Shown: positions 6,701 through 43,859, counted from the stretch's first letter. The stretch: 59,565 nucleotides of DNA from Deltaproteobacteria bacterium (GCA_024275045.1 JAJRZX010000073.1:1-59565), one strand, 5' to 3'. Notes: generated by a model not told the origin, from the letters alone. Translations and numbers: made by a program.

Positions 6701-6820
6701 TTAGAGTCTCCAGGCCAGGACTATCATATTAAATAACATGATAACAGCGATAAGTATGCCGACCCTAATGGCGAACTTTCTCTTCTTGGCTTTTATTTCA
6801 TCAGATGTTGGATTAGACAC
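6701..6820 (-). CDS. Unannotated 39-aa single-TM protein (VSNPTSDEIKAKKRKFAIRVGILIAVIMLFNMIVLAWRL)
   Basis: GTG start preceded by AGGAGG. The start overlaps the stop of the upstream 438-aa gene (GTGTCTAA), and the stop is 3 nt before the DUF420 start. It is below the ORF-track length cutoff. Confidence 0.4.
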   Translation of the reverse strand: MSNPTSDEIKAKKRKFAIRVGILIAVIMLFNMIVLAWRL

Positions 6821-8129: not shown

Positions 8130-8132
8130 GAG

Positions 8133-9023
8133 TCAGGTTACATCCAGTATCATGGCGGTGAAGAGAAGGGTAAGATAAAGTATGGAGAAAAAGAAGAGAA
8201 ACATATCGTACTGACGCGTAGAGCGCAGAAACTTTACGGCAAGTACAAGGTAGAGTAAACCAAGTCCTATGGCCGCGGCAAGGTAGAACGTACCTGTTAT
8301 GCCGGCGAAAAAGAGCAGCGTGGTAGCAGGGATTAATACGACGGTGTAGAGGAAAATCCGTACCTTTGTGGCATGCACCCCTTTTGCAACGGGTATCACG
8401 GGTATAGAGGCACGGGCGTACTGGTCTCTGTATTTAAGTGCAAGGCTGAGTGCGTGTGGCTGCTGCCAGAGGGCCACTATGGCAAATAGTATAAGGGCCG
8501 TGCCGTTGATTCCGCCTGTAATTGCCGTATAACCTATTAAAGGAGGCAGAGCACCGGCAAGCCCGCCTATCTGGTTGGCAAAGGGACTTCTGCGTTTAAG
8601 GATAATACCGTATAAAAAAACGTAACCGCAGGCCGCCATGGCCGTAAGCAGGGCCGTGACGTGGTTTACCTCCAGGGCAAGGACTGTGATTGAGAGTACA
8701 ATAAGTCCAAGCCCTGTTAAGAGGGCCTTGTTGGGTGATACCTTTCCAAGGGCAAGGGCCCGCATGGAGGTGCGTTCCATGAGTCGGTCAATGTCTCTAT
8801 CAAAGTAATTATTAAGGAGAGCCGCCCCGGCCGTAGCCGTACCAAGCCCGCCAAGTGTCCATAAGATGAGAGTGAGGTTATACCCTCCGCCTTGTCCGCC
8901 AAGGTAGATGCCCGTTAACGCGGCTACGAGAACAAGGCCGATAATGCCCGGCTTTACAAGGGTTACGTACTCACCGGCGGTGGTGCGTAACGGCAGTATA
9001 ACCTCTACGGCGTGCTGATTCAT
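8133..9023 (-). CDS. ctaB: Protohaem IX farnesyltransferase (haem O synthase)
   Basis: 296 aa. UbiA-type motif NNYFDRDIDRLMERT. There is a 4-nt overlap with ctaA. Confidence 0.85.
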   Translation of the reverse strand: MNQHAVEVILPLRTTAGEYVTLVKPGIIGLVLVAALTGIYLGGQGGGYNLTLILWTLGGLGTATAGAALLNNYFDRDIDRLMERTSMRALALGKVSPNKALLTGLGLIVLSITVLALEVNHVTALLTAMAACGYVFLYGIILKRRSPFANQIGGLAGALPPLIGYTAITGGINGTALILFAIVALWQQPHALSLALKYRDQYARASIPVIPVAKGVHATKVRIFLYTVVLIPATTLLFFAGITGTFYLAAAIGLGLLYLVLAVKFLRSTRQYDMFLFFFSILYLTLLFTAMILDVT

Positions 9024-9940
9024 GAGGTTATGACCCTCCTTTTTGTGCTCTCAGAGAGGAAAAAGGGCATTGCCTGATAGGCAAGCCAGCCAAGAAAGAG
9101 AAAACCCGTGGCAGCGTGGAGGATAATCACAGGCAGGAACATGCCCGTGGCTACGATGAGTATGCCGAAGGTGGCCTGGGCCAGCACGAGTATGAAGGTT
9201 ACAAGAGAGGCCATTGTATCTTTTTTGCCTGATATGGCGGTGTAGAGTTTTATGGCTGAGATTATAAATATGGTAAGGGCCGTGACTCTGTGAAAGAAGT
9301 GCAAGACCACGGAGTAGTCCGTAAATGCGGGAATTATGCTGCCCCTACAGAGCGGCAGGTCAGGGCAGGCCAGCGTGGCCCCTGAGTACCGCACAAGTAT
9401 ACCGAGAACCACCTGGATGTATACAAGACAGAATAGGAAAAAGAAAAAGTTTGACCCCTCGGGCCTGCCTCTGCGCCTGACGTAATGCAGTGAGAAAGTG
9501 AGGCACGTAAGCACCAGCGTGGAGATAATCAGGTGTGATGAGATAATGGCCACATTAAGAAAGCTGTCAAGGCGCGGAGCCTCTACAAGCACGGTAAGGC
9601 CGCCAAGGCCCACACCTGTAAATAAGAGCAGAACTATGGCAGAGGTGAATACCCGTGGCAGCCCTCTGTAGCTTCGCCAGACAAAGACGGTTGAGAGGAT
9701 TATCAGTGTGCCTGCCGTAGCGCCAAGGAGCCTGTGCCCCCACTCAAACCAGATACTGAGGCGCATGGGCGGGGCCACTGTGCCGTAACAGAGAGGCCAG
9801 TCCGGGCAGGCAAGTCCGGAGCCCGTGGATGTTACAAATGCGCCCATTACCATGAGCAGATAGGTGAAAAAAACTGTTGCGCCAAGGAGCAGGGGGAGGC
9901 GGGAGGAATACCGGTCTCTTCCCATGTAAGATGTGTCCAT
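9020..9940 (-). CDS. ctaA: Haem A synthase (COX15/CtaA)
   Basis: 306 aa with paired motifs CPDWPLCYG and CPDLPLCRG and conserved His in the TM helices. Confidence 0.85.
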   Translation of the reverse strand: MDTSYMGRDRYSSRLPLLLGATVFFTYLLMVMGAFVTSTGSGLACPDWPLCYGTVAPPMRLSIWFEWGHRLLGATAGTLIILSTVFVWRSYRGLPRVFTSAIVLLLFTGVGLGGLTVLVEAPRLDSFLNVAIISSHLIISTLVLTCLTFSLHYVRRRGRPEGSNFFFFLFCLVYIQVVLGILVRYSGATLACPDLPLCRGSIIPAFTDYSVVLHFFHRVTALTIFIISAIKLYTAISGKKDTMASLVTFILVLAQATFGILIVATGMFLPVIILHAATGFLFLGWLAYQAMPFFLSESTKRRVITS

Positions 9941-10085
9941 AAAAACAACTCCTCCTTTTTCCGCTTTAATCTCTTTTCAGCCGGTGACTTAACCTCGTTA
10001 TCTCATCTTGTGAAGACTTTTTTCTTATGGTTAAGAGCTGAGCCTTCTACTTCCGGCCCACACCGAGAGCCCGCATGGGGCGCTC

Positions 10086-11690
10086 TTAATCGGGGTTAAC
10101 GCCGTAACCGTAGGGGTCCCAGTCTTCGGGCAGGTCAAGGGGCTTACCGCCGAAGTTTCCTGGCCCCGGAGGCGACTCAGTATGCGTCCACTCAAGGGAC
10201 CTTGAACCCCAAGGGTTGGTGGGGGCTTTTTTACCGTAGAAGGCCCCGTGAAGCCACGTTATAAGTATAAGCAGTGCACCCAGTCCGATGACAAAGGCAC
10301 CGTAGGTCTGTATCTTATGAAGATGCTCAAGCTGAGGCATGTGGCTGTAATCAAAGTACCGCCGTGGCATGCCCTTTAGTCCCACGATGAACATGGTGAA
10401 GAATGTAACGTTCACGCCGATGAAGAGGACGAAAAAGGCGAGTTTGGCCAGCGCCTCGTTGTACATCTTGCCCGTCATCTTGGGGAATAGGTAGTAAACG
10501 CCGCCAAAGACCGCGAATGTGCCTGATACGGCAATGACGTAATGAAAGTGCGCTACAACAAAATGCGTATCATGGAGCGCCAGCGTAAGGGCCGCCATTG
10601 CGTGAGGTATACCCGTAAGGCCGCCTACAAGGAAGAGGAATATGAAACCGCAGGCGTAAAGCATGGGGGTCTTGTACTGTATGGCGCCCCTGTACAGGGT
10701 GCCTACGAGCCCTATCATCATGAGCCCCACGGGAACGCTGATAAGGAGTGTGCTTACCATCATGCCAAGGCGTATCCAGTTGGGCATGCCTGATGTGAAG
10801 AGGTGGTGTACCCAGACCTCGCCGCTTAGGACCGTTGTGCCGATGAAACCTCCGAATACAACTACTTTTTTGTTGAAGATACGGTTTTTGGCAAAGGTTG
10901 CCACTATCTCATAGATTATACCCATCATGGGCAGCAGTATGACATAAACGGCAGGGTGTGAGTAGAACCAGAAGAGGTTCTCGTACAAGAGTACGTCTCC
11001 GCCCATGGCAGGGTCGAAGAAGTGCGTTCCCAGATACTTGTCAAGGGTCAGAAGCGTTACCGCAGAGCCAAGCACAGGGACAAAGATAAGCTGCAGTATA
11101 AAAGCGCACATGGTGGCCCAGACAAAGATATTAAGTTTTGCCCAGGTAACGCCCGGGGCGCGCATGTAGATGATGGTGGCGATGAGGTTGATACCGCCCA
11201 CAATGGATGAGAAACCCATAATCAGAACCGTAAAGGTATAAAAGGATGTATTACCTCCGGACATGATGGAGTACGGCGGATAGGCCGTCCACATGAAGTC
11301 CGGCGGGTTTGGTACGACAAAGGTGAGCAGCGCTACGATGATGCCCATCCAGAAGAGCCAGAGGCTGAGGGCGTTCACGCGGGGAAAGGCAACGTCCTTG
11401 GCGCCTATCATGAGCGGTACGAGATAGTTTGCCAGAAAGCCCGTCAGGGCCGGTATCTGAAAGCCCAGTATCATGGCGGCCCCGTGAAAGTAGAGCCAGA
11501 CGTTATATGTCTGAGGGTTTGTAATGGTTGGCCCTATGCTTGAGAGCTCCACCCTTATGAGCACGGCCATGAGACCGGCCACGGCAAATGCCGCCAGAGA
11601 CCCTATGAGGTATAGAATGCCAACCCTCTTATGGTCGGTGGTAAATATCCACTGACTTAAATTTTTTCCGAAACTAACAGACTGACTCAT
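10086..11690 (-). CDS. ctaD: Cytochrome c oxidase subunit I, A2-type
   Basis: 534 aa. Motifs: FWFYSHPAVY (YS motif with no Glu in HPxVY, so A2 subtype), VHHLF and AHFHYV. Confidence 0.95.
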   Translation of the reverse strand: MSQSVSFGKNLSQWIFTTDHKRVGILYLIGSLAAFAVAGLMAVLIRVELSSIGPTITNPQTYNVWLYFHGAAMILGFQIPALTGFLANYLVPLMIGAKDVAFPRVNALSLWLFWMGIIVALLTFVVPNPPDFMWTAYPPYSIMSGGNTSFYTFTVLIMGFSSIVGGINLIATIIYMRAPGVTWAKLNIFVWATMCAFILQLIFVPVLGSAVTLLTLDKYLGTHFFDPAMGGDVLLYENLFWFYSHPAVYVILLPMMGIIYEIVATFAKNRIFNKKVVVFGGFIGTTVLSGEVWVHHLFTSGMPNWIRLGMMVSTLLISVPVGLMMIGLVGTLYRGAIQYKTPMLYACGFIFLFLVGGLTGIPHAMAALTLALHDTHFVVAHFHYVIAVSGTFAVFGGVYYLFPKMTGKMYNEALAKLAFFVLFIGVNVTFFTMFIVGLKGMPRRYFDYSHMPQLEHLHKIQTYGAFVIGLGALLILITWLHGAFYGKKAPTNPWGSRSLEWTHTESPPGPGNFGGKPLDLPEDWDPYGYGVNPD

Positions 11691-14481: not shown

Positions 14482-15426
14482 TTATTGCTTATTTGCCTTG
14501 GTCGTTACCTTTGAGGTAAGTTTTTTTGCCTCTGATAATTCCTTTGGGCTCATCCTTGCCTCAAGGCTCTTGAGCGCTTCCTCGGCGTTATCTATCTTGC
14601 CCTTTGCCGCGAGGCTCAGCCACATGTAACCCAGGGGATAATTCTGCTTTACGCCTTTACCGTATGCGTACATGAGCCCCAGGCTGGCACGGGCCTTTGC
14701 GTTGCCGTTAACAGCGGAGCGGTGAAACCAGAGAAAGGCTTTGCCGTAGTCCTGGGTCACGCCGTTACCGTAGGTGTACATTACGCCGAGCTGCAACTCG
14801 GCCTCAGAGTAGCCCTGAGCCGCGGCTTTTTTGTACCACTCAAATGCCTTGCCGTAATCCCTGGGCACTGTCTGACCCTCGTAGTACATGAGCCCCAGAA
14901 TGCTCTGAGCGCCGGGGTCGCCCTGCTTCGCGGCTTTCTCATACCAGTAGAATGCCTCGTGATAATCTCTTTTTACGCCGTGGCCTGCGGCATACATGAG
15001 CCCCAGAATGCTCTGAGCGCCCATGTCGCCGTGTAAGGCCGCCAGATGGTACCACTTAAAGGCCGTTGTATAGTCCCTTAAAACGCCGTGGCCCTTGTAG
15101 TACATGAGGCCAAGGAGGGTCTGGGCCTTTGTATTGCCCTGCTCAGCGGCTTTTTCGGCCCAATTGAAGGCCTTTTTGTAGTCCCTGGTCACGCCGATTC
15201 CCTCGTAATACATCTGCGCCAGATAAGCGCGGGCTCTGGCGTCTCCCATCCTGGCGGAGTTCTCTATCTCCTGTAAATTGGTCTTAAGGGTGGTGCGCCC
15301 CTGGGGAAGGGCCGCGCTCGTACCCTCTTTGCCTTTCCTGGCGCCGTATGTAGGCGGCGTGAGCGCAAGGAACAAGAAAAGTATTATCAGGTGTATGGGG
15401 GCATGGGCCCGTACCAATGCAGGCAT
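14482..15426 (-). CDS. Secreted Sel1-repeat (SLR/TPR-like) protein
   Basis: 314 aa with a signal peptide. It has about 7 repeats of the form GxGVxxDYxKAxxWYxKAAxQG. Confidence 0.85.
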   Translation of the reverse strand: MPALVRAHAPIHLIILFLFLALTPPTYGARKGKEGTSAALPQGRTTLKTNLQEIENSARMGDARARAYLAQMYYEGIGVTRDYKKAFNWAEKAAEQGNTKAQTLLGLMYYKGHGVLRDYTTAFKWYHLAALHGDMGAQSILGLMYAAGHGVKRDYHEAFYWYEKAAKQGDPGAQSILGLMYYEGQTVPRDYGKAFEWYKKAAAQGYSEAELQLGVMYTYGNGVTQDYGKAFLWFHRSAVNGNAKARASLGLMYAYGKGVKQNYPLGYMWLSLAAKGKIDNAEEALKSLEARMSPKELSEAKKLTSKVTTKANKQ

Positions 15427-15428
15427 AT

Positions 15429-15920
15429 TTATTTTTCCTTTAATTCCTTTGACAAAAAGTCCCTTGAGAGTTTTTGCGCTTTTGCCACCTCAGCGGGGGT
15501 CATCTTTGCCTCAAGGCTGTCAAGCTCAGGTATGGAGCGAACGTAACCTCCGGCGCTTGCCAGGTTAAACCACATGTAGCTCAAGATATAATCGCGTCCC
15601 ACGCTCTCACCCCTCATGTACATGAGGCCAAGGTTATACTGCGCCTCTGCTACTCCCTGCTCAGCGGCCTTTTTAAACCACTTGTACGCCTTATCATAGT
15701 CCCGCATGCCCCCTCGGCCTCTGTAATACATGTTGCCGAGCTTTAGCTGCGCTTTTTCGTCATCCATTCTCGCCCTGGCCTTCAGGGACTTTAATGGACT
15801 CGCAAGGGTACTGTCAGTTGTAAGGTTTACTTTAGCCCCGCACTCGTTGCGGGGGGTGATGAGGGTAAGGGTTGCGAAAAAAAGAAATGAGATAGTGGCG
15901 GAGATGATGAAAGACTGCAT
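15429..15920 (-). CDS. Secreted Sel1-repeat protein (short)
   Basis: 163 aa with a signal peptide and 2-3 SLR units. Confidence 0.8.
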   Translation of the reverse strand: MQSFIISATISFLFFATLTLITPRNECGAKVNLTTDSTLASPLKSLKARARMDDEKAQLKLGNMYYRGRGGMRDYDKAYKWFKKAAEQGVAEAQYNLGLMYMRGESVGRDYILSYMWFNLASAGGYVRSIPELDSLEAKMTPAEVAKAQKLSRDFLSKELKEK

Positions 15921-17813: not shown

Positions 17814-18190
17814 AAACCATTATTCCGTTAGTTAATGCCCTCATTATAAAGACTCGTTTTTTTGCTGTACAGAGGTGAGGGGTGTGTTCTTTTTCGGAGT
17901 AAAGCTCAATCTTCGCGCAGTGGTTCTGCGCTTTTTAAAGGCTCTGCACAGTGGTTTTTTATATAAATTATCTTACACCTATTTAGAAAAAATAACAGAA
18001 AAACCATGCTCTTACAATAAGTTTTGGAGCCCTTGGCAGTGCGGAACAAGTCTTTGTTTTTTTAGCGCTTAAGCATCTTGCCGTAAGCCCTTGCTCCCCA
18101 TATTATTTTTTCTCCTGCGATTTACAGCCCCAGGTAATTGTGTTATCCTTAAATTAATCACCACTACGCAACTTATCGAGTGAGGTCTTT

Positions 18191-20356
18191 ATGAATGTAC
18201 GTGAATTTAAAAAAGAGCTTCAGGTTCATATAGAGGCAAGGTATCCCATTCTCTGGCTTGTGTCTTTTGAGGAGCGGAGAATTGAGAAGATTCTTGAGGA
18301 AATGTCCGAGTCCATGAAAATGGTCTACTGGACGTGGTCTGTATCAAAAGGGCTTTACGGCGGAGAGAAGAAAAAGAGAGAGAAGATGGGGCGCGAGAAG
18401 ATTCTCATTAATATTGAGGAGCGTTTCGCGAGAAGCGAGGAGGTTAATAACCTCTTTCTCCTAAAAGACATATCCGGTTACTTTAACTCCCATGAGTTTC
18501 TGCGCCGTTTTCGAGATCTTCCGGCGGCTATTGAGGATAACCGCGCGCTTAATACCATCTGCATACTCTCACCTACGCTTGGCGACGTGCCCCCTGAGCT
18601 TGAGGAGGACATTATTGTCCTGGAGTTGTCGCTCCCTGATTACGAGGAAATCGCAGAGCTTGTTAACGCCACATACGGCCACCTTATACCTGAATCATGG
18701 TCAACTGCGACTCGCTCTATCCTCTATATGTCACTTCAGGGCCTATCCCTTGATAATGTAAAAAGGGTAATACGAAAGGCCGTAAGCCTGAATAACGGCG
18801 TGCTTAACGAGGACTGCATACAGTACATTCAGTCTGAGAAGCAGCAGATAATCCGCAAGCAGAAGATACTGGACTACTATCCCTTTAAAGAGACCATAGA
18901 GCATATCGGCGGTCTTGAGGAGATAAAAAAGTGGTTTGTTGAGAGAGAGCACATCTTCAGGCTCTCCAATGAGAAGATGAAGACCCTGGGCCTTGATATC
19001 CCAAAGGGGCTTCTCCTTATCGGCGTGCCGGGCTCAGGTAAGAGCCTCTGCTGCAAGGCACTGGCCGGTATTTGGAATCTGCCGTTGCTGCGCCTTGACG
19101 TAGGCCGTCTCTTTGGCTCCACAGTGGGAGAGTCGGAGAAAAACATTCGCCGCTGCATCCAGCTCAGCGAGGCCATCAGCCCATGCGTACTCTGGATAGA
19201 CGAGATTGATAAGGCATTTGGCGGTATCGGCGGTTATCAGGGAGACTCGGGCACGCAGCTTCGCGTCTTCGGTACCTTTATCACGTGGCTGCAGGAAAAG
19301 AGTAAACCCGTCTTTGTCATATCCACGGCAAATGAGCCAAAGAACCTTCCGCCTGAGCTCTGGCGTAAGGGCCGTTATGATGAGGTCTTTTTCGTAGACC
19401 TGCCAAGCGTTGACGAGCGTGATGAGATTTTCAGGATTCATCTTGAGAAGAGGATCGGAAACATCAGCAGCCTGCATATAAGCGAGTTCGCGCAGAACAG
19501 CCACGGCTTTACAGGCGCGGAGATAGAGCAGGCAGTTAAAGACGCTATTATCACCACCTTTAATACCATCAATGAAGCGGGCGACCCCGTGGAGATGGAA
19601 AAAAAGATAGACGGCCTGCTCAGCCTTGATGTGCAGCAGTCTACCATATTAACATCCATACGCAATATTACGCCTCTCTCCGTACTTAAGAGAGAAGAGG
19701 TGGAAGAGCTTAGAAAGTGGAGCCATCAGCGTGCGCGCCCGGCCTCAAAGGCCCTGTATATCCAGAGGGCCGAGATGATGAGCGAGGCGGAAAAGCGCAG
19801 TATCGCCGTACACGAGGCAGGGCACACCCTTGCAATGATGTTCCATTACCGCAGCACCCCCATATTTGTCAGCCTTGACAACTACAGCGGGGCAGGGACT
19901 TTTATACCCAAGGACGATGCCATGAGGGCCACCTTTACCAAAAAAGACCTTGAGTGCGAGATTGGCGTAATACTTGGCGGCATGGTGGCAGAAGAAGAGC
20001 TTGGCGGTACGGGCTCGCAGACTGTTGGGGCATCGCAGGACCTTATGCACGCAACTGAAATTGCGCGAAGAATGGTGGTGGAGTACGGCTTTGGCGAGAA
20101 GATGAGCAACAAGAGCCTCGTGGCCCTGCAGGACTATGCCATAACCTCGGGAGTAGAGGTTCTTGACGATATACAGAAGATACTGGATAATGCCATGGAG
20201 ATGACAACGGATATAATTTCGGCAAATAACGAGGTGCTGCAGAAACTCGTGGAGGAGCTCCTTAAGGACGTGCTTATGAACGGCGAGGCCATTAACAGGT
20301 TCTTCAGCAGCAACCCCCTAAAGGTCACCTCTTTCTCAACAGGCCAGCCCGCCTGA
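18191..20356 (+). CDS. Soluble AAA+ ATPase (Ycf46-like N-terminal region and AAA module) fused to an FtsH-type M41 zinc-protease domain
   Basis: 721 aa with no TM segment. N-terminus [20 protein letters not shown]; Walker A GVPGSGKS; Walker [10 protein letters not shown]; [14 protein letters not shown]. The C-terminal part reads [10 protein letters not shown] ... [23 protein letters not shown], which is FtsH protease-like. Confidence 0.85.
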
Positions 20357-20528
20357 TGTTTGTTTAATATTTACCCATGTTGCCACGGCCTCTTTACGGT
20401 GACGGTAATATGAGAGAGTACTTGGGCCTGATGTTTTTTTAATGTGATAGTTTACCATAAGCGCAGACTCAGAATACGCCCTTTGCAGCTGCTGTTGTTT
20501 TAGGGGCGCTTGAACTTGGGAGGCAGAA

Positions 20529-20870
20529 ATGTCTTTTTATACCAGAATACAGACACAGCTTAAGAATAAACAGTACGTTATCGCCGCCCTTGTGGAGCTT
20601 AGAAAAAGAGGCGAGATAACAGAGTGTACCATTGATGAGAAAAAAGAGGTTATGGAGGTTGACCGTTCAGGCGATATCATCAAAGTCTCAAGGAACAAAA
20701 AAGGCGACTTTGAGCTTGGGGGCGACAACCGCGTGGTGCAGGCTTTTTCCAATAAATTAAAGCAGTTCTATGCCCTTGAGTCCATAAAAGACAACCTGCC
20801 TCTTGATTTTGAGATAGCCGAGGAAAAAGAGACCATCGCAGGCGAGATTAACATCCTCCTGAAAGGCTGA
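20529..20870 (+). CDS. DUF1257 (Ycf35)-like small protein
   Basis: 113 aa. The N-terminus MSFYTRIQTQLKNKQYVIAALVEL resembles the DUF1257 pattern as I recall it. The family is known to neighbour Ycf46-type ATPases. Confidence 0.5.
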   Translation: MSFYTRIQTQLKNKQYVIAALVELRKRGEITECTIDEKKEVMEVDRSGDIIKVSRNKKGDFELGGDNRVVQAFSNKLKQFYALESIKDNLPLDFEIAEEKETIAGEINILLKG

Positions 20871-20928
20871 GACGGCTTCTGCGTAGCGGGAATGGCCAAG
20901 TGAGGCTATGGTCAAGCATGGTGTGGCA

Positions 20929-20966
20929 GGGGGTAAGGCGGGGGTAGGATAGGGGCAACAGGGGGG
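20929..20966 (+). other. Canonical G-quadruplex motif G5-N6-G5-N7-G4-N5-G6 in the DUF1257/DUF2997 intergenic spacer, on the sense strand
   Basis: GGGGGTAAGGCGGGGGTAGGATAGGGGCAACAGGGGGG, read directly from the sequence. Confidence 0.6.
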
Positions 20967-21075
20967 CGGACGGTTTTTAAGGGTTTCAACACATGAGCAG
21001 GACATATAAGTGTTTTTTTCTGTATAAAGGGTTTATTGCGGCCTCTTTATACTTAAGAAAAGGCGGTTAAGGATA

Positions 21076-21258
21076 ATGGATAGAAAGATCAGTATCAAGA
21101 TAACAAAGGACGGTCATGTGGAGATAGACTCCACGGTATTTACGGATTGCAAGGCCGTTGCCGACCACCTGGCAGAGCATCTTGGCAAGATGGAAGAGTT
21201 TGTGGAAAAAGATGATTTTGATACTCGGGTAAAGGTGAAAATAGACTCAGAGTCTTAA
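21076..21258 (+). CDS. DUF2997-like small protein
   Basis: 60 aa. KISIKITKDGHVEIDSTVFTDCKAVADHLAEHLG fits the short beta-hairpin plus conserved Cys pattern of DUF2997. AAGGA lies upstream. Confidence 0.45.
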   Translation: MDRKISIKITKDGHVEIDSTVFTDCKAVADHLAEHLGKMEEFVEKDDFDTRVKVKIDSES

Positions 21259-21300
21259 CGGGAGCCTGCAAGGGCTCTCTTTATATAGAGTTAAGGGATT

Positions 21301-21879
21301 ATGGGAATTATTCTGAACCTACATGGTCTTATACCCATGTCAAGGGTAAACGGGCCGGGCACAAGGAGCGTGGTTTTTTTTCAGGGATGCGGCCGCGGCT
21401 GTGCGGGCTGCTTTAATACATCTACCCACGACTTTTCTCCCAATAAAACCATGACCGCGGAGCAGGTCCTCTGCCAGGTCCCAGATGGGGTCGAGGGCCT
21501 TACGATTAGCGGCGGTGAGCCTTTTGAGCAGCCTTCAGGGCTTCTGGCCCTCTTAAAGGCCGCGAGGTTTAGCCCCAGACGTACGCTCTCGGTACTTGTG
21601 TACACGGGGTTTACCTTGAAAGAGATAAAGACCGATGAGGCCCGCATGGAGGCTCTGCCATTTATCGATCTCCTTATCGCAGGCCCTTATGATGAATCAA
21701 GGCCGGAAAAGACGGCTCTTGCGCGCGGCTCTACGAACCAGACCTTTCATTTTCTCTCCCCCCGATACACTCTTAATGACCTTTATCTCCCTGCCCGCTC
21801 TGAGATAAGCATAGGGGCCGACGGCTCTCTTACGGGCACGGGATTTTCCAGACTATCATCTATTGTGGAATCAATATGA
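21301..21879 (+). CDS. NrdG-type (glycyl-radical-enzyme activase-like) radical SAM protein
   Basis: 192 aa. Motifs: NGPGTRSVVFFQGCGRGCAGCFN (CxxxCxxC), LTISGGEPF, YTGFTLKEI, LIAGPYDES, GSTNQ. Confidence 0.8.
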   Translation: MGIILNLHGLIPMSRVNGPGTRSVVFFQGCGRGCAGCFNTSTHDFSPNKTMTAEQVLCQVPDGVEGLTISGGEPFEQPSGLLALLKAARFSPRRTLSVLVYTGFTLKEIKTDEARMEALPFIDLLIAGPYDESRPEKTALARGSTNQTFHFLSPRYTLNDLYLPARSEISIGADGSLTGTGFSRLSSIVESI

Positions 21880-24527
21880 ACAGGGCCGCTGTAAAGGAGA
21901 CCATAAAGAGTCTTATGGGCAGCGATGACCGCTACGCCATCCGTGATGTCGTTGGGGTGCTCTCGCGAGATTTTACGCGCGGCGTTGAGACTATTGATAT
22001 ATTCGAGCTTGCTTTTGACCTTGTAAACCCCTTGAAAGACCCTGCGGAACGCCTGGGGCTGCTATCTTCCCTTGTAACGGGCATGCCCTGCACCGGACCC
22101 TTTACTCCTTTATATACCGCTTATATGGAGGTCTCCATACTTGCGGCAGATGCCCTGCCTGCAAAAAATCACAGGACTACGGAGCTGCTGAGGCTTGCCC
22201 GCGCCCTGCCTGCCACGGATGAGTTCGAGGGGCAGAGGGTCTCTGCTTGGAGGCTTGCCCTTGGTCTGCCCGACAGGCCGAGGTTTGAGAAACCTTCGCT
22301 GAAAGCCCTCTCTAAAGAGCTGCCCAAATCCAAGGACTATACCTTTTACAAGAGTTATACCCTTCTGGGCATAGCGGCGCAGCTGCCCACTAATCCGCCT
22401 TTTACGCATATATACCGCGAGGCCATTGAGCTTGCCATTGAGGCAAGCGGCGTTGCAGAGGAGCCGTACTACAAGAAGTACGCCCTTATATCCATAGCAA
22501 AGGAGATAGAGGGCAAGCCTGAGTTGGAAGACTTATACGTGCTGGCCTTTCGCAACGCACTGAAGGCCAGTATGGAGATGAAAGACGAGTTTGCCCGTGA
22601 GCACGCCCTTGTGGACCTATTCAGCGAGGTGCCTGTTACTGCTATTTTTTACGATCTCCTCATGGAGGTACTGGAGAAGTCTCTTGGTTTCTTTACCGTA
22701 CGCAGCCGTATGGAGGACCTTGAGATTACCGATGTAGTGGATTTTGTCCTCTCTGCCGAGGATCTCAGCCTTAAGGATTCGAAGAAAAAGAGGTTTGCCA
22801 GAGAAAAATACGCTAAACGACTGGCAAATGCCCTCCTTAAGCGAGGTAAGGATATTAAAGACACTCGTTTTATAGAGGTTCTGCGTCCCTATGCCCATGT
22901 ATGGATAAGACCTGCCGTGCTCCGTGAGGCCGTAAAGGAAGTCATCACAGGGATTGAGTCCCTTAAAAAGACCTTCCACGGACGGGAGATAGAGCGCCCG
23001 GTGCTAATAGGCGGAGAATCCCTTGCCGCTGGAAAGGCCGAGTCCGCAGCCTCCAGAAAAGCCCTCTACAAAGGCTGCGTGGCAATAGACCTTGGCGCTA
23101 CCAATACACTGGTTATGAGGAGAAAGGCCGAGGAGCCCCCCGAGTTTTTACCCTTGCCCTCAATCTCCATTAATTACGGCCATGCCGTTATAGTGCCTAC
23201 TGTTATCAGCAAAGAGACTGATACCATTGGGGCCGAGGTCATTGATGAGGACCCTGTTGTTAATATGAAACAGATGGCCCTTGAGGGCAATGATGATGCA
23301 AAGGCGCATCTGGAGAGGTTTCTGAGGATACTCTATACTCACATAGAGGGCAGTATAGTGAAACCCGGATGGTTCAAGCTCTTCTCGCAGAACCAGGGCG
23401 ATGTACTCTACATCACCGTACCAATAGGTTTTAATCTGTACAAAGATACGCTTGAAGAGATATCGCGCAAAGTCTTTAAGGGCCTTGCCGTGGAGTTTGT
23501 AGAGGAGCCGCTGGCCGCGGCCGTTGGGTATCAGGTGGCAGGCGAGGAAGACAGCGTTATTATGATGATAGATTTCGGCGGCTGCACCCTTGATTGCATG
23601 ATACTGCGGATAAATGTGGACGGGGTGCATGTTATAGCCAAGCCCGAGAGGGCGCAGGTACTTGGCGGTCATGATATAGACCGCTGGATAGCCGGTTTTC
23701 TTGCAAAAAAGGCTAATATTACGGGGCCGCCCTCACGCACTCTCCTGCTCCTTGCGGAAAAGCTCAAGATCGCTCTCTCCACGGAGAAGTCCGTGCCTTT
23801 TGAGTGGAACGGCAGAAAGATTATGGACTTTACACGGTATGACCTCGAAGAAGCCCTTGATGCCCATGACTTTTACCATGTTGTGGACCGCACCATGAAT
23901 TACGTCCTCAGAAGGGCCGTAAGGGTGGGATTACAGAAAAAATCAATAAGCGCTGTAATACTTACAGGAGGGTCATCACAGATACCTTCTTTTAAGGATA
24001 AAGTATGTGAAATTTTTACGGAGCTGCGTTCACAGAACCTTGTCTTTGACCACAGTCCCCTTACGGCGGTAGCCGAGGGCGCGGCGCTTTACGGCACAAG
24101 AGACGTGGTGGACAGGCACCTTGCCATGGCCTATGCCGTGCGGTACGCCACAGGCTCTGAAGAGGACCCCTTTTCCTACAGCATAGTTATGGAAAAAGGC
24201 GAGTCTCTGCCTGTCTCAAGGGTTTTTTCCATAGTTCCGGCAAGAAGGCTTGGTGAGCAGAAGGAGATATTCCTTGAGCTCTTTGAGGTTCCCGAGCCTC
24301 TGGTGGTAAGACGATGGGTAGAAGAGGGCGGCGTGGAGCTGCTTAAACAGAAGATAATCGATACAAGGGGGATCTCCTTAAATCTCCTAAAGTCTTTTAG
24401 ACTTCCCCTGCCCGAGGGCGCAGGCGATACGCTTACCCTGAGCCTTATTGTTGAGCAGAACGGCGGACTCTCAGTGCAGTGGGGCGGCACGGAAGAACCT
24501 ATACCAACGGGTATACGGTTACAGTAG
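21876..24527 (+). CDS. Large fusion protein: about 390-aa alpha-helical repeat N-terminal region plus an Hsp70-family ATPase and beta-sandwich substrate-binding-like domain
   Basis: 883 aa. Hsp70 motifs: VAIDLGATNTLV, MMIDFGGCTLDCMIL, VILTGGSSQIPSFKDKV. The start overlaps the activase stop (ATGA). Confidence 0.8.
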   Translation: MNRAAVKETIKSLMGSDDRYAIRDVVGVLSRDFTRGVETIDIFELAFDLVNPLKDPAERLGLLSSLVTGMPCTGPFTPLYTAYMEVSILAADALPAKNHRTTELLRLARALPATDEFEGQRVSAWRLALGLPDRPRFEKPSLKALSKELPKSKDYTFYKSYTLLGIAAQLPTNPPFTHIYREAIELAIEASGVAEEPYYKKYALISIAKEIEGKPELEDLYVLAFRNALKASMEMKDEFAREHALVDLFSEVPVTAIFYDLLMEVLEKSLGFFTVRSRMEDLEITDVVDFVLSAEDLSLKDSKKKRFAREKYAKRLANALLKRGKDIKDTRFIEVLRPYAHVWIRPAVLREAVKEVITGIESLKKTFHGREIERPVLIGGESLAAGKAESAASRKALYKGCVAIDLGATNTLVMRRKAEEPPEFLPLPSISINYGHAVIVPTVISKETDTIGAEVIDEDPVVNMKQMALEGNDDAKAHLERFLRILYTHIEGSIVKPGWFKLFSQNQGDVLYITVPIGFNLYKDTLEEISRKVFKGLAVEFVEEPLAAAVGYQVAGEEDSVIMMIDFGGCTLDCMILRINVDGVHVIAKPERAQVLGGHDIDRWIAGFLAKKANITGPPSRTLLLLAEKLKIALSTEKSVPFEWNGRKIMDFTRYDLEEALDAHDFYHVVDRTMNYVLRRAVRVGLQKKSISAVILTGGSSQIPSFKDKVCEIFTELRSQNLVFDHSPLTAVAEGAALYGTRDVVDRHLAMAYAVRYATGSEEDPFSYSIVMEKGESLPVSRVFSIVPARRLGEQKEIFLELFEVPEPLVVRRWVEEGGVELLKQKIIDTRGISLNLLKSFRLPLPEGAGDTLTLSLIVEQNGGLSVQWGGTEEPIPTGIRLQ

Positions 24528-24735
24528 TCTGCTCTCGGTTTTATCCCCCCTTTTTTTTTACCTTCTTTTTTTATCTTTGTTACTCTTTTTTGAGTCTTTG
24601 TTCCTGTGTTTTTTTTCTCTGATTATCCGGGTTTTACTTTTAACAGTGATAGGTGTCACATGAAAACCAGAGCGCGCCCTCTATAATGAATTTACCAGGA
24701 ACCGCTATCTTCACCGTACACTAAAGGAGGCGCCA

Positions 24736-25191
24736 ATGGATGCAAAGTTTCTTGCCGAGAAGGCGATAAGGCTTGCCGAGACCGGTTGTTACAGCGAGGC
24801 ATTGAGGATATTCGATAAAAACGTCTTCAGCGCTCTTAGTCCCAGGGCCCAGTCTTTTTACGCCCTATCCATGGCTACTGTGGATGAAGATTATGACCGT
24901 GCCGTTAATATGTGTTTAACGGCGGCTGCAAAGGAGTTTTATAACCCGGAGATATACCTTAACCTGGGTAAAACCCTTGTGTTAAGCGGCGCGAAGACAC
25001 GGGCCCTGAAAGCCTTTAAGAAGGGGCTGAGGTTTGATGAGGCCAATGCGCTCCTTATCGCGGAGATACGGAGGCTGGGTCACAGGCGTGCTCCGGCGAT
25101 TTCATTTCTGTCGCGAGGCAACGTCATTAACCGATTTTTCGGCATTCTTACCCATAAGGTAGGTGGGCTGGGTCTGGCACGTACCGGTTGA
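24736..25191 (+). CDS. Small TPR-like protein
   Basis: 151 aa. Helical repeat segments include YSEALRIFDK and NPEIYLNLGKTLVLSGAKTRALKAFKKGLRFD. AGGAGG lies upstream. Confidence 0.55.
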   Translation: MDAKFLAEKAIRLAETGCYSEALRIFDKNVFSALSPRAQSFYALSMATVDEDYDRAVNMCLTAAAKEFYNPEIYLNLGKTLVLSGAKTRALKAFKKGLRFDEANALLIAEIRRLGHRRAPAISFLSRGNVINRFFGILTHKVGGLGLARTG

Positions 25192-25246
25192 AGACCAATC
25201 GGGGCAGGGGTAAAAAAGGGGCAGGTAAGAGTAATCATAAATTAGA

Positions 25247-25279
25247 GACGCCGTCACAATGGACGGCGTTTTTTTTTAC
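25247..25279 (+). terminator. Rho-independent terminator closing the 18.2-25.2 kb gene string
   Basis: GACGCCGTC-acaatg-GACGGCGT followed by T9. Confidence 0.65.
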
Positions 25280-28188: not shown

Positions 28189-29259
28189 TTGGATACATTG
28201 GTTGAGAAGGGAAAGGCGGATTACGGCTCAGTAGCTGAGATGCTCTCGGAGCGGGCAAAGCACGTTCTTGGCGCTATTGTAAAGGACTACATTGAGAACG
28301 CCGAACCCGTGGGCTCAAAGACCATTGCCTCAAGATACTATCCCGGGCTCTCATCAGCCACTATACGTAATATCATGGCGGGCCTTGAGAAACTGGGCCT
28401 TCTCTTTCAGCCCTATACATCCGCGGGACGAATACCCACGGAAAAGGCATTTCGAGTTTACCTTGATACCTTAATGGAGCTTGAGGAGCCGGGCAGGGCG
28501 GAGAAGGAGTTCCTGTACAGCCGTGTTGAGCAGGTCTTCGGCATAAAGGATATACTTACGGGCACAACCAGGGCCCTCTCTCATATTACCAACTGCACTG
28601 GGCTTGCGCTTCTTATGGGTAGTTATGATTTTATCATAAAAGACATCAGGCTCCTGCCCATTGATACGGAGTCGCTGCTACTTGTCCTTGTACCTGATAC
28701 GGGCCGAGTCTCCACTACTGTCTTTCACGGCGGCACGCGCACCGAGGGCCTTGATCTTGAGAAGGTCTCCAATTACCTCAGGGAGATAGGACGGGGGCTT
28801 ACGGTAAAGAGCCTTCGGAGCCGCATAGTGGAGGAGATGAGGGATGAGAAAAACCTCTACAATGAGCTTCTCCGAGAGGCCCTGCAGCTCGGAAAGCTGG
28901 CCCTTAGCGGTTACAGCGAGAGCGACGAGGGAGCGCTTTACGTGGAGGGGCAGGCCAATATCCTTGGATACCCGGAGTTTCGCGAGGACTACGAGAAGAT
29001 GAAACAGCTCTTTACAGCCTTTGAGGAGAAGAGTATTCTTGTGAAACTCCTTGACCAGAGCCTTCGGCAGGAGTGCATACAGGTATATCTGGGCTCTGAG
29101 AGCAGTTTTGAGGGTTTTGACGGGCTGAGTTTTGTTATAGCCCCTTATCATGTGGATAACCGCATCTCAGGCACACTGGGGCTTATCGGGCCCGTGCGCA
29201 TGGATTACTCAAAGATAGTGCCTCTTGTATCTTACGCAGTGGGGCTTATCGAGGGGTAG
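28189..29259 (+). CDS. hrcA: Heat-inducible transcription repressor HrcA
   Basis: ILGAIVKDYIENAEPVGSKTIA at the N-terminus and a typical C-terminal GTLGLIGPVRMDY. The start may be the ATG at 28240. Confidence 0.9.
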   Translation: MDTLVEKGKADYGSVAEMLSERAKHVLGAIVKDYIENAEPVGSKTIASRYYPGLSSATIRNIMAGLEKLGLLFQPYTSAGRIPTEKAFRVYLDTLMELEEPGRAEKEFLYSRVEQVFGIKDILTGTTRALSHITNCTGLALLMGSYDFIIKDIRLLPIDTESLLLVLVPDTGRVSTTVFHGGTRTEGLDLEKVSNYLREIGRGLTVKSLRSRIVEEMRDEKNLYNELLREALQLGKLALSGYSESDEGALYVEGQANILGYPEFREDYEKMKQLFTAFEEKSILVKLLDQSLRQECIQVYLGSESSFEGFDGLSFVIAPYHVDNRISGTLGLIGPVRMDYSKIVPLVSYAVGLIEG

Positions 29260-29345
29260 GGGCTGAGAGGCGCTTTAAGGTTTTTTTAAGTCATAGGGTC
29301 CGGGCCGTGCTGATTAGGCACTCCCATTTTTAAGCGTGGTATTTA

Positions 29346-29990
29346 ATGAAAAGGGCGAGTATGAAGGACAAAAATAAAGAGAAAGAAGAAGAGTTGAAGG
29401 TAAAGGTGGTTGATGGTAAGGCCTCTTCCGCAAAGGACTCAAAGTGCGGTCTTGACGGTGGTGGTGCAGAGGAGGAAAAGAGTCTTCAGACCCTTCTTGA
29501 GGAAAAGACGGACGAGGCGGCACAGAACTATGACCTCTTCCTCAGGGCCCGCGCTGATATACAGAACCTTAAAAAACGCAGCGAGAAGGAGCGGGCAGGG
29601 TACATAAGCTACGCAACAGAGCAGGTTGTGCTGGAGATACTCCCGGCTATTGATAACCTTGAGCGCGCTATTGAACACGCTGAGTGCGAGGGTGAAAAGA
29701 GCGCCTCTCTTGTAGAGGGCGTTAAGCTCACCATCGAGCAGATGCGCAAGGCTTTGGAAAAATTCGGGGTGGTAGAGATAAAGGCATGCGGTGAGGTTTT
29801 TGACCCTGCCATTCACCATGCCATCAGTCATGTTGATGCGGTTGACGCAGAGCCAGGCACCGTGATTAAGGAGTTTCAGAAAGGTTATCTCCTTAAAGAC
29901 AAGCTTCTTCGGCCTTCAATAGTATCTGTTGCCGGAGGTACTGATTCTGATGATGATGAGCGAGAGGCAGAGGCAAAGAATCTGCATTAA
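29346..29990 (+). CDS. grpE: Nucleotide exchange factor GrpE
   Basis: 214 aa. Motifs: YLRARADIQNLKKR, LPAIDNLERA, FDPAIHHAIS. Confidence 0.9.
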   Translation: MKRASMKDKNKEKEEELKVKVVDGKASSAKDSKCGLDGGGAEEEKSLQTLLEEKTDEAAQNYDLFLRARADIQNLKKRSEKERAGYISYATEQVVLEILPAIDNLERAIEHAECEGEKSASLVEGVKLTIEQMRKALEKFGVVEIKACGEVFDPAIHHAISHVDAVDAEPGTVIKEFQKGYLLKDKLLRPSIVSVAGGTDSDDDEREAEAKNLH

Positions 29991-30166
29991 CTCAGGCAAG
30001 GTATGAGATGTGCCTGAACCATACTGCGGCTCATGGTGGTGCCGCTATTTTCATATAATTGTAAGTCTTTGAAGGAGTGAGAAAGAGGGTGGCTACGCTC
30101 TCTTTCTCGTCTTCCGCCAACTTGGGGACGAATGATTCAGAGGTCTCGCAGAGAGGAAAAGATGTA

Positions 30167-31261
30167 ATGGGAAAAGATTATTATACTATTCTCGGTGTAC
30201 AGAGAACAGCTTCAGATGATGAGATAAAAAAGGCGTACCGCAGTCTCGCTCTTCTGCATCACCCTGACAAAGAAAAGGGGGATGAGGAGAAGTTCAAGGA
30301 GATAAACGAGGCATACAGCGTCCTTAAAGACCCGGCCAAGAGAAGGCAGTACGACCAGTTCGGCACCGCCGGAGTGGGCGCAGGGTATAGAGAGGCGGGT
30401 TTTGGAGGAGGCGCAGGCGGGTTTGAGGACCTCTTCGGCGAGGTCTTCTCTGACTTTTTCGGCGGCGGACGCCGCGGTCCCTCTGCAACGCGCGGTGCGG
30501 ACCTGCGTTACGACCTTGAGCTTACCTTTGAGGAGGCGGCCTTTGGCACGGAGAAGGATATACAGATACCGGTTACCGTTGACTGCTCCAACTGCGGTGG
30601 CTCGGGCGCGAGAGACGGCACCCAGGCAGAGACGTGTTCACGGTGCAATGGCTCAGGCCAGGTAAACTTCAGACAGGGTTTTTTAACCATAGCAAGGCCC
30701 TGCGGCTCCTGCGGCGGCAGAGGCGTGGTAATAAAAAATCCATGCGCCTCCTGCTCGGGTCTTGGTAAGGTGCGACAGAGGACCAAGCTCTCGGTAAAGG
30801 TACCCGGTGGCGTGGATAACGGCTCAAGGCTGAGACTTGCGGGCAAGGGCGAGGCAGGAGATCTCGGAGGCCCTCCCGGAGACCTTTACGTAGTGGTAAA
30901 CGTAGGTACCCATGAGATATTCAAGAGAGAAGGCGATAATATCATATGTCATGTGCCTATCAGTTTTGTGCAGGCAACCCTTGGGTGCGAGATAGATGTA
31001 CCCGTGCTTGGCGGTACGGCAAGGCTGAAAATTCCCGCAGGGACTCAGCCAGGTAAAGTTTTCTCACTAAAGGGCAAGGGCATTGCATCGCTGCAGACCG
31101 GCAGGCGCGGCGAGGAACTCGTAGTCATAGAGGTGTGTATACCAAAGGGGCTCTCGAAAAAACAGACCGAGCTCCTTGAGCAGTTTGCTGAGATTAGCGG
31201 AGACGAAGTCTCTCACCCATCGAAGAATCTTTTCTCAAGGGTAAAGGAAATTTTCGAGTAA
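30167..31261 (+). CDS. dnaJ: Molecular chaperone DnaJ
   Basis: [12 protein letters not shown]-domain with HPD, a G/F region and four CxxCxGxG zinc motifs. The ORF-track start at 30077 is probably an upstream extension. Confidence 0.95.
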
Positions 31262-40948: not shown

Positions 40949-41471
40949 TTCCCGCCTTCTCCCTTCGGCTATCTATGCCAGCCTCTGCTGCTCCTGAACT
41001 TGATCTTACCCGTATCCCGGCGCGCTGCAATTTTTTAAATCTTTTATGTGTTTTGCCTCTTTTATTAACTTGCCTTTTAACATCTCATGGTTTAATATTA
41101 ATCTTGTATTAAGTTATTAGCTCATGTTTTTGTTCTTCGAGCACTTCTCTCCTTGATTCTCTCATCAGTGTTGCGACTTTGATTTACTCACCGGCCCCGG
41201 CCTTGTTATAAGGGCTCTTTATTGTCCTGAGAGTCAGCGGTTCTCTTAGAAGGTTAATTCTGTAATTATGTGATTTATCAGAGTAATTGGTTACCCCGGG
41301 TGCGTCTCGGTCTTGCTTCTATTTTCACCTCTATACCTGTAAAAACTCTTCGCTACTCCCGGATGTTCCCCCCTCTGTCTTTTTTTGGGAACCAGTCGTA
41401 TTGCTGAGGGTTTTTTGAGTAGTCTTTCTTTTTTTGTCTGCATTCTCTATATGCGGGGTAGAGGTAAGAAA

Positions 41472-43451: not shown

Positions 43452-43452
43452 A

Positions 43453-43812: not shown

Positions 43813-43859
43813 AGTTGCGGGAGTGAAAAACAAGAGGATGCTTATGTCTGATTTTATAA

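Follow-up and report, generated by a model that had tools for sequence, protein, structure and literature searches.

A conserved gene cassette joining a Ycf46-type ATPase-protease, divergent DUF1257 and DUF2997 proteins, an NrdG-like radical SAM enzyme and a repeat-Hsp70 fusion

For decades, two genes conserved in the genomes of plastids and cyanobacteria, ycf46 and ycf35 (DUF1257), have been known without a function. Relatives of both are present in a stretch of 59,565 nucleotides from a Deltaproteobacteria bacterium (GCA_024275045.1 JAJRZX010000073.1:1-59565; the whole stretch is hereafter called the window), within a run of six genes that also encodes a DUF2997-like protein, a radical S-adenosylmethionine (SAM) enzyme, an Hsp70 fused to a helical-repeat domain and a small tetratricopeptide-repeat (TPR) protein. 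This composition raises the question of whether the genes form a unit and, if so, what an ATPase-protease, a chaperone and a radical enzyme might do together. Comparison with orthologous, plasmid, phage and viral loci shows that the cassette is, as judged from its genes, an elaborated form of the Ycf46/DUF1257/DUF2997 module, to which an M41 protease domain and a repeat-Hsp70 were added in the Thermodesulfobacteriota/Nitrospirota lineage.

The six genes are co-directional on the + strand, and all of them lie where an initial sequence-only reading of the window had placed them. The first gene (18191-20356) encodes a 721-residue ATPase-protease with Pfam AAA and Peptidase_M41 domains. It is followed by genes for a 113-residue divergent DUF1257 (Ycf35-like) protein (20529-20870) and a 60-residue divergent DUF2997 protein (21076-21258), both assigned by hhalign profile matches, and for a 192-residue NrdG-like radical SAM enzyme of the Fer4_12 family (21301-21879). 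An 883-residue helical-repeat-Hsp70 fusion (21876-24527), identified by Pfam HSP70, an AlphaFold2 (AF2) model and Foldseek, and a 151-residue protein with weak TPR matches (24736-25191) complete the run. The same reading had placed a 377-bp non-coding region (17814-18190) in front of the first gene, and this region is indeed bounded upstream by a minus-strand open reading frame (ORF) ending at 17813; an LPG_synthase_C gene lies downstream of the cassette. The ATGA overlap that it had noticed between the radical SAM and Hsp70 genes is located at 21876-21879, and suggests that the Hsp70 gene is translationally coupled to the radical SAM gene. Three of the other gaps in the window cassette are fairly long (172, 205 and 208 bp). 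All six products are predicted to be soluble, without transmembrane segments on hydropathy analysis, and profile searches upheld the proposed AAA, M41, radical SAM, HSP70, DUF1257 and DUF2997 families, the TPR being supported weakly.

Twelve orthologous loci were obtained and compared with the window proteins by tblastn, and the 11 that hold the 113-residue gene were taken as the evaluable set; a scan of GTDB, in which generic Hsp70 motifs also matched, gave at least nine true orthologous loci. Both small genes are found in all 11 evaluable loci, and the order 113-residue protein, 60-residue protein, radical SAM enzyme, Hsp70 fusion is kept in every one of them. The AAA-M41 gene lies directly upstream of the 113-residue gene in 10 of the 11. 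The exception, locus L013 (1-4484), has no AAA-M41 gene within 964 bp upstream of the 113-residue gene; its Hsp70 fusion is split into two ORFs and misses the first ~86 residues, and the locus may be decaying or wrongly assembled. Against the window proteins, identity is 66-89% for AAA-M41, 52-87% for the 113-residue protein, 49-73% for the 60-residue protein, 44-63% for the radical SAM enzyme and 40-67% for the Hsp70 fusion. Most of the loci have short intergenic gaps, and in five of eight the Hsp70 gene starts before the radical SAM gene has ended, with an overlap of 4 or 1 bases.

The flanking genes differ between these loci. In the window and in loci L006 and L011 an ABC-transporter gene is located upstream and LPG-synthase-C, hemW and hrcA downstream, the same downstream genes being present in L002 and L007, while L001 and L004 carry the cassette in a MarR/MFS/narGHJI region. 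In the window and L002, hrcA is followed by grpE and dnaJ, and the cassette lies a few kb from hrcA-grpE-dnaJ in the window and four relatives. In the window, hrcA, grpE and dnaJ occupy 28189-31261, 3 kb downstream of the cassette, with no dnaK between them. The carriers, traced through relatives of the Hsp70 fusion, are uncultured genomes of sulfate-reducer-like bacteria (Thermodesulfobacteriota, 'Deltaproteobacteria') and of Nitrospirota. The synteny in other genomes for which the sequence-only reading had asked extends to 11 further loci with differing flanks, and the recurrence of this gene order at 40-89% protein identity places the arrangement far beyond chance. The comparison shows five genes that can be read as a conserved operon, the TPR gene being optional.

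The TPR gene had been counted as part of the cassette, and this does not hold. Its product matches TPR weakly in Pfam (E 6e-5, below the cut-off), and the gene adjoins the cassette in about half of the loci (window, L002, L006, L007, L009 and L011). In L008 it lies at a distance of 7 kb, and L001, L004, L012 and L013 lack it. The 208-bp gap in front of it holds a promoter-like site, found by a promoter scan at 24660-24687. We treated it as a lineage-specific accessory or conserved neighbour and not as a core gene.

What kind of protein heads the operon? The 721-residue product matches Pfam AAA (E 2e-28) and Peptidase_M41 (E 9e-25), the M41 domain making up its C-terminal 190 residues. Residues 6-528 are 36% identical to the entire 508-residue Ycf46-like AAA protein of a cyanobacterial plasmid (E 5e-107), in an alignment that takes in an N-domain for which Pfam has no model, and phrog_8638 is matched over residues 3-544 (E 9e-125). 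Eight orthologues retain the Walker A and B motifs and the arginine fingers of the ATPase as well as HEA[GS]H and GASxDL of the protease, and both modules look catalytically intact. The highest hydropathy over 19 residues is 1.27, which indicates a protein without transmembrane segment, and the score against the FtsH equivalog TIGR01241 is 183 bits versus a cut-off of 600. Because it has no hydrophobic segment, scores far below the FtsH cut-off and aligns with Ycf46-type proteins, the 721-residue protein appears to be a soluble Ycf46-type ATPase with an acquired M41 protease and not an FtsH, as the earlier description of a Ycf46-type AAA with an added HEAGH domain had it. It resembles FtsH in having a classic-clade AAA domain followed by M41 with HEXXH and the GASxDL aspartate, but differs in the lack of a membrane anchor or periplasmic domain, in the Ycf46-type character of its N-terminal 250 residues and in its pore loop 1, which reads S-T-V-G without the usual aromatic residue. 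The best family matches of the ATPase are FtsH, Cdc48 and PAN, which places it in the classic protein-unfoldase clade.

After pore loop 2, the ATPase carries a GDSGT-x-x-RVFGTF motif (window 19232-19246; residues 348-352 onward), in which D352 and G354 do not vary among 13 Ycf46-like ATPases. One viral homologue reads RVFGY, which superficially resembles a glycyl-radical motif. RVFG(T/Y) was considered as a glycyl-radical site and rejected, since it is part of a helix of the AAA core and has a glycine that varies.

The two small proteins are too divergent to be recognised as single sequences. The 113-residue protein scores 15.3 bits against a PF06868 gathering threshold of 22.2 (E 0.024) and the 60-residue protein 12.5 bits against 24.1 for PF11211 (E 0.14). 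Alignments of orthologues gave clear results: against bona fide DUF1257 proteins, hhalign returned 98.4% with E 9e-15 over 109 columns, i.e. the whole domain, and against DUF2997 proteins 96% with E 4e-9 over 48 columns. The 113-residue protein also matches phrog_20456 (E 1e-9) and has an invariant MSFYT N-terminus. Its family profile found only six proteins among 1.84 billion representatives, two of which pass Pfam DUF1257. No significant match to its fold was found in the PDB, the best being the RnlA N-domain (E 0.06), and the sole viral Foldseek match is an unnamed 147-residue phage protein (TM 0.64). The 60-residue family conserves I.I.I..DGKVEIDS..F.DC..VA..L...LG, and shares DG...C...LG with DUF2997 in the alignments. 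Judged by these family profiles, the searches confirm the two proteins as divergent members of DUF1257 and DUF2997.

A resemblance between the products was seen in passing. The N-terminal hairpin motif of the 60-residue protein, I-x-I-x-I-x-x-DG-K-V-E-I, is echoed by E-I-x-I-x-x-DG-x-L-x-x-x-G-F in a C-terminal extension of the radical SAM enzyme (window 21727-21879), and a similar stretch, E-V-D-R-x-GD-I-I, lies within the 113-residue protein.

Compared with the Ycf46/Ycf35/DUF2997 trio of cyanobacteria and red-lineage plastids, the cassette has an ATPase that aligns over its full length, N-domain included, homologous small proteins, and genes that are likewise adjacent and co-directional. 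It differs in the addition of the M41 fusion, the radical SAM enzyme and the repeat-Hsp70, in small proteins that fall below Pfam thresholds, and in its hosts, which are non-photosynthetic uncultured Thermodesulfobacteriota and Nitrospirota. In cyanobacteria, DUF2997 and DUF1257 (ycf35) also form a cluster with fed7, a ferredoxin gene (review, PMC4284462), which adds a further iron-sulfur partner of the two small proteins. In Synechococcus elongatus, severe oxidative stress and darkness induce the three-gene ycf46 operon in a ppGpp-dependent manner, and stress and CO2-related phenotypes are the only ones reported for the trio (bioRxiv 10.1101/2025.07.21.665879). In the literature we found neither a mechanism for DUF1257 or DUF2997 nor a description of the cassette as a system.

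The fourth gene encodes a 192-residue protein that matches Pfam Fer4_12 with E 2.5e-30 (Fer4_12/Radical_SAM call). It is 31% identical to Escherichia coli NrdG over all 154 NrdG residues, and shows the motifs VNGPGTR (GPG-R), CX3CX2C and GGEP. Its best NCBIfam and PHROG matches are NrdG, and PflA is its only match in the PDB, which suggests that it is closest to protein-directed activases. With these it shares the three motifs, the small size and the identity to NrdG, whereas it scores 104.4 bits against a cut-off of 126.1 for the NrdG equivalog TIGR02491, has no glycyl-radical enzyme nearby and carries a hairpin-like C-terminal extension of ~40 residues (E-I-x-I-x-x-DG...G-F) that is absent from E. 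coli NrdG. The extension is common to radical SAM proteins located beside DUF1257, DUF2997 and AAA genes in other phyla and in viruses.

The fifth product, the Hsp70 fusion, matches Pfam HSP70 over residues 541-740 (E 1e-19). In the AF2 model (predicted local distance difference test, pLDDT, 72) residues 1-366 form a helical solenoid, which a linker connects to the nucleotide-binding domain (400-740); the substrate domain that follows (769-881) is a beta-sandwich, with strands up to residue 881, where the model stops, and no lid helices. The top Foldseek matches are DnaK and BiP, across both Hsp70 domains and over 540-580 columns. The ATPase motifs IDLGATNT, EEPLAAA, DFGG.TLD and TGGSSQIPS, together with K465, the catalytic lysine, are invariant in 12 sequences. 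According to sequence and model, the nucleotide-binding domain therefore looks active and the substrate domain lidless. The protein scores 85 bits against a cut-off of 620 for the HscA equivalog and 60 against 822 for DnaK. It has 130 relatives, nearly all of full length, with 40-81% identity among the 120 listed. Its C-terminus is a conserved G-x-R-L-Q, in which L882 is invariant and Q883 nearly so; it calls to mind docking tails like EEVD in Hsp70 and Hsp90 and HbYX in proteasomal ATPases. This tail is not a glycyl-radical motif, for which it was also considered, and its glycine is not invariant.

To place the cassette in a wider family, the Ycf46-type part of the ATPase was used as a query, and full-length relatives (at least 80% coverage) were found on 41 plasmid records and 35 phage records. 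From these we inspected 19 loci of plasmids and phages, picked for taxonomic spread and not at random. DUF1257 and DUF2997 are present in 12 of the 19, Hsp70 in one, and a radical SAM gene in six, from Treponema, Bacillus cereus, B. halotolerans, Paenibacillus, Arthrobacter and Rhodococcus. A further 80 viral loci from IMG/VR with a full-length Ycf46-like ATPase were scanned with local hidden Markov models (HMMs), giving DUF1257 in 23, DUF2997 in 20 and radical SAM in 12; the small-protein counts are lower bounds, these proteins being hard to detect. All 12 viral radical SAM loci, two of which are the ends of one contig, are also DUF1257-positive (Fisher p = 2e-8). The viral ATPase ORFs, at ~480-660 residues, are too short for an M41 domain, and none of the 80 loci has an Hsp70. 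HMMs of the Hsp70 solenoid and C-terminal beta-domain had no matches in the ~100 plasmid and viral loci.

Two distant DUF1257 matches, on short metagenome contigs, show the order DUF1257, DUF2997, Fer4_12 radical SAM, and on one contig (L086) a Ycf46-like AAA gene comes after the radical SAM gene. Aligned from end to end with the window enzyme, extension included, the metagenome-contig radical SAM shows 37% identity. The gene that follows it in L086 was considered as an Hsp70 N-domain; it gave no hhalign match and is the start of the Ycf46-like AAA.

The joint occurrence of these genes in 12 of the 19 plasmid and phage loci, and of DUF1257 with every radical SAM gene of the viral set, marks the core as a genuine functional unit. 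Across phyla and in viruses, the trio has the NrdG-like enzyme as a recurrent partner. The link to radical SAM, which the sequence-only reading had listed among the novelties of the cassette, is not one, as the same subfamily lies beside Ycf46-type AAA, DUF1257 and DUF2997 genes on plasmids of Bacillota, Actinomycetota and Spirochaetota and on phage contigs. All four families of the mobile module are found in the cassette, and the radical SAM proteins of both belong to one subfamily that bears the C-terminal extension, but the mobile module has neither M41 nor repeat-Hsp70 (the latter in 0 of 80 viral loci); it often adds a helix-hairpin-helix protein and sits in replication or plasmid-establishment regions. 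Only three traits are peculiar to this lineage, namely the fused M41 domain, the repeat-Hsp70 and a stable place in the chromosome. No paper was found on the phage and plasmid module of Ycf46-like AAA, DUF1257, DUF2997 and Fer4_12 radical SAM, which we saw in database records.

The one Hsp70 among the plasmid loci is on Pseudanabaena galeata plasmid pPg_01 (L088), where grpE, an Hsp70 of 528 residues, DUF1257, an HEC-02 pair, DUF2997, a Ycf46-like AAA and a WD40 protein are clustered beside RelE and PIN toxin genes. This Hsp70 is 28% identical to the window Hsp70 over 323 residues (~100 bits), in an alignment that reaches the C-terminal beta domain; with DnaK structures, the Hsp70 half of the window protein reaches no more than 58 bits. 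By sequence comparison, pPg_01 holds a second, independent Hsp70 link to the trio. No close relative of its Hsp70 was found on other plasmids, so the link is rare.

Some mobile loci have peculiarities of their own. The HEC-02 pair of pPg_01, a two-gene candidate defence system (L088 8430-10003; PADLOC E 3e-148 and 4e-67), interrupts the cluster between its DUF1257 and DUF2997 genes. On Treponema succinifaciens plasmid pTRESU01 (L089, L091) the DUF1257 gene lies inside a phage-tail-like (sheath/baseplate) cluster, and the Fer4_12 radical SAM and Ycf46-like AAA genes beside 'baseplate assembly protein V' in a second tail-like cluster ~54 kb away. The helix-hairpin-helix protein is a fifth conserved member of the module on plasmids of Bacillus cereus, Arthrobacter and Rhodococcus (L093, L098, L102).

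How is the cassette expressed? A sigma70-type promoter-like site is located at 18121-18149 on the + strand, with TTTACA, a 17-nt spacer, TATCCT and a TG upstream of the -10 box. When nine orthologous upstream regions were aligned, this was the only conserved block, reading TTTACA/TTTGAA ... TGTGTTATGAT. A sigma32-like sequence at 18077-18101 (CTTG-N15-CCCCAT) was rejected, being of chance frequency and not conserved in the orthologues. No sigma54 site was found near the cassette, no CIRCE element anywhere in the window with up to three mismatches allowed, and no Rfam match to a riboswitch or known RNA upstream of the cassette. Directly 3' of the 60-residue gene, a terminator-like hairpin on the + strand (21260-21279; 8 pairs, 5 of them GC, then TTTAT) is a possible attenuator. 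The strong terminator reported after the last gene does exist on the + strand as an intrinsic-terminator-like hairpin followed by a T-run, but our scan places it at 25244-25273 instead of 25247-25279; it has a 12-pair stem with 6 GC pairs, then TTTTACTATT.

The reading that we favour, tentatively and with rather less than even confidence, is that the operon encodes a dedicated cytoplasmic pathway of protein remodelling and proteolysis, constitutively promoted and including a radical modification step, the mechanism of which we infer as follows. The core machine would consist of the AAA ring with both small proteins, these serving it as obligate cofactors or adaptors, and would unfold specific clients; in this lineage the M41 domain would turn remodelling into client degradation. 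The repeat-Hsp70 would select, capture and present the client. The radical SAM enzyme would abstract a hydrogen atom from an exposed protein loop, as its NrdG and PflA relatives do, and its target, the client or one of the small subunits, would be armed or marked by this step. In a more specific form, which we consider doubtful, the NrdG-like enzyme would install a radical or radical-derived modification on DUF1257, DUF2997 or an Hsp70-held client, upon which the Ycf46-type AAA would then act. The pathway, which we do not read as a defence island, would probably be tied to stress or redox physiology; a link to stress is seen in the induction of the ycf46 operon (bioRxiv 10.1101/2025.07.21.665879) and in the position of the cassette near hrcA-grpE-dnaJ.

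The synteny, the short gaps in most loci, the radical SAM/Hsp70 overlap, the conserved catalytic motifs, the recurrence of the core in plasmids and viruses, the second Hsp70 link of pPg_01, the lack of predicted transmembrane segments and the conserved sigma70-type promoter all speak for a remodelling and proteolysis pathway. Several observations weigh against it. The glycyl-radical motif RVxG[FWY] is absent from all six cassette proteins, and the RVFG(T/Y) of the ATPase is part of the helix after pore loop 2 and not invariant. The radical SAM gene is optional in the wider family and so not essential to the core machine. As pore loop 1 has no aromatic residue, processive unfolding by the ATPase is not assured, and as there is no heat-shock promoter or CIRCE element, the adjacency to hrcA may be plain lineage synteny. 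In phages the core lies among DNA replication and nucleotide genes (ThyX, UvrD, DnaG), hinting at a role outside proteostasis. Every carrier genome is uncultured and metagenome-assembled, and the client, the radical target and the complex itself are postulated.

The alternative that survives best, unlikely as we judge it, is an anti-phage or inter-element conflict system, in which the repeat-Hsp70 and TPR proteins would sense an invader, AAA-M41 would be an effector or threshold device and the radical SAM enzyme would make a toxic or modified product. In PADLOC and NCBIfam, the AAA domain does match the anti-phage ATPase IetA/IteA (E 4e-29 and 3e-27), and in PADLOC the Hsp70 weakly matches candidate PDC-M61B. 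The cyanobacterial plasmid relatives sit among toxin-antitoxin and defence genes: those of pPg_01 beside the RelE and PIN toxins, with the HEC-02 pair inserted, and those of a Geminocystis plasmid beside an ATPase plus RloB pair and a zeta toxin. But the PADLOC matches cover generic domains only, an IetS-like protease partner is missing, as are vWA, MoxR and McrBC partners, and four of the six cassette proteins have no significant or specific PADLOC match, so that the proposal of a composition without a named counterpart stands. The cassette holds no nuclease, NADase or pore-forming effector, and lytic-type phage genomes carry the core inside replication modules.

Two described groups of conflict systems come closest. 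In the vWA-MoxR 'FtsH ternary' systems, FtsH-type ATPases are found in some cases with a radical SAM effector (PMC7159879), and the cassette resembles these in joining a soluble FtsH-type AAA, a large helical-domain protein and a radical SAM in one operon. It differs from them in that no vWA or MoxR domain was found by Pfam in the six proteins, and in that its ATPase has one AAA domain after a Ycf46-type N-domain and not a double one; DUF1257 and DUF2997 are not part of those systems. CnuD of CoCoNuT systems has an Hsp70 unit of nucleotide- and substrate-binding domains joined to HEAT-like repeats (PMC11090510). Compared by description only, CnuD/CnuCD of type III CoCoNuT and the cassette Hsp70 are alike in this combination within one protein and in their multi-ATPase operons, whereas the ATPase motifs of CnuD are reported as degenerate (PMC11090510) and those of the cassette Hsp70 are invariant; McrB/McrC, HEPN and coiled-coil partners are absent from the cassette.

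The sequence-only reading had also favoured a conflict or stress module over housekeeping. Here the evidence points both ways. The surroundings of the cyanobacterial plasmid relatives agree with that choice, while chromosomal context and conservation argue against a typical defence island: the cassette lies in conserved synteny among housekeeping genes (hemW-hrcA-grpE-dnaJ) or beside narGHJI, behind a sigma70-type promoter, and its proteins are strongly conserved (AAA-M41 66-89%, the 113-residue protein 52-87%).

A role in DNA replication, repair or nucleotide metabolism, inherited from mobile elements, is quite improbable. On this view a nucleoprotein complex would be what the ATPase remodels, and the substrate of the radical SAM enzyme would be a nucleotide or nucleic acid. 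The neighbours of the mobile module lend this some weight. Phage loci contain ThyX, a UvrD-type helicase, DnaG primase and DUF3150, and the phage and phage-plasmid module adjoins DnaB and DNA polymerase genes as well; the UvrD-type helicase is the only recurrent large neighbour family among the clustered loci, which include the 12 viral and five of the six plasmid radical SAM loci. JAB/RadC-like, DUF3150, ParB-like and DnaQ-like genes are its neighbours on plasmids, and the versions from Bacillus, Arthrobacter and Rhodococcus contain an inserted helix-hairpin-helix protein. The window cassette, however, has no DNA-binding domain in Pfam and has gained a protease and a protein chaperone instead, its ATPase belongs to the protein-unfoldase clade of FtsH, Cdc48 and PAN, and its radical SAM enzyme is closest to protein-directed activases (NrdG, 31%, and PflA).

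A more ordinary role for the radical SAM enzyme would be to activate a glycyl-radical enzyme, NrdD for example, whose gene lies in another part of the genome, with the Hsp70 and the AAA protease aiding maturation or clearing the oxygen-damaged enzyme. Activation of the pyruvate formate-lyase (PFL) type, by PFL-AE, requires exposure of the glycine loop, which would suit such helpers, and the identity to the whole of E. coli NrdG, the N-terminal VNGPGTR motif and the NrdG best matches in NCBIfam and PHROG agree with it. We nevertheless find this very improbable. The enzyme falls below the NrdG equivalog cut-off (104 versus 126 bits) and has the extension that E. coli NrdG lacks and that DUF1257/DUF2997-linked radical SAM proteins have in common. 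The absence of a glycyl-radical enzyme from the 59-kb window, which had been claimed, was borne out: none was found among the eight ORFs of at least 530 residues outside the cassette nor in two shorter ORFs scanned alongside. None recurs around the 12 viral and six plasmid radical SAM loci either, and the same module is carried by plasmids of the aerobic Arthrobacter and Rhodococcus. A fortuitous adjacency unique to this strain, to which the long gaps of the window (172, 205 and 208 bp) and the terminator-like hairpin after the 60-residue gene might point, is hardly credible and is refuted by synteny, the order being kept in 11 further loci at 40-89% identity with differing flanks and the components co-occurring in unrelated phyla and viruses.

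If the doubtful, more specific form given above is right, with a protein modified by the NrdG-like enzyme and then acted on by the AAA machine, the cassette would encode a new, radical-SAM-dependent protein-processing machine whose core is common to phages, plasmids, cyanobacteria and plastids, and it would provide the first biochemical function for the plastid ORFs ycf46 and ycf35. The partners found here, a radical SAM enzyme, a zinc protease domain and an Hsp70, point to unfolding or degradation coupled to radical chemistry, and make the function of ycf46 and ycf35 experimentally approachable. Should the Hsp70 and AAA-M41 cooperate, they would represent a new bacterial chaperone-protease pairing. 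That phages and plasmids so often carry the core makes one ask how mobile elements benefit from it.

Several other features of the window were noted. On the minus strand, one cluster at 6813-11690 contains two COX1-family (haem-copper oxidase subunit I) genes, in a genome that otherwise resembles anaerobic Thermodesulfobacteriota. Two adjacent minus-strand genes at 14482-15920 encode repetitive proteins with short N-terminal hydrophobic stretches and a repeat unit, G-x-G-V-x-x-D-Y-x-x-A-x-x-W-[FY], that is Sel1-like by eye only. A 577-residue radical SAM protein is encoded on the minus strand at 36607-38340. The region 38954-47480 is a signalling block with a GGDEF-EAL protein, a Cache-HAMP histidine kinase and a 1206-residue receiver-PAS-GAF-HD protein, and 52728-54437 encodes a Kelch-plus-TPR protein.

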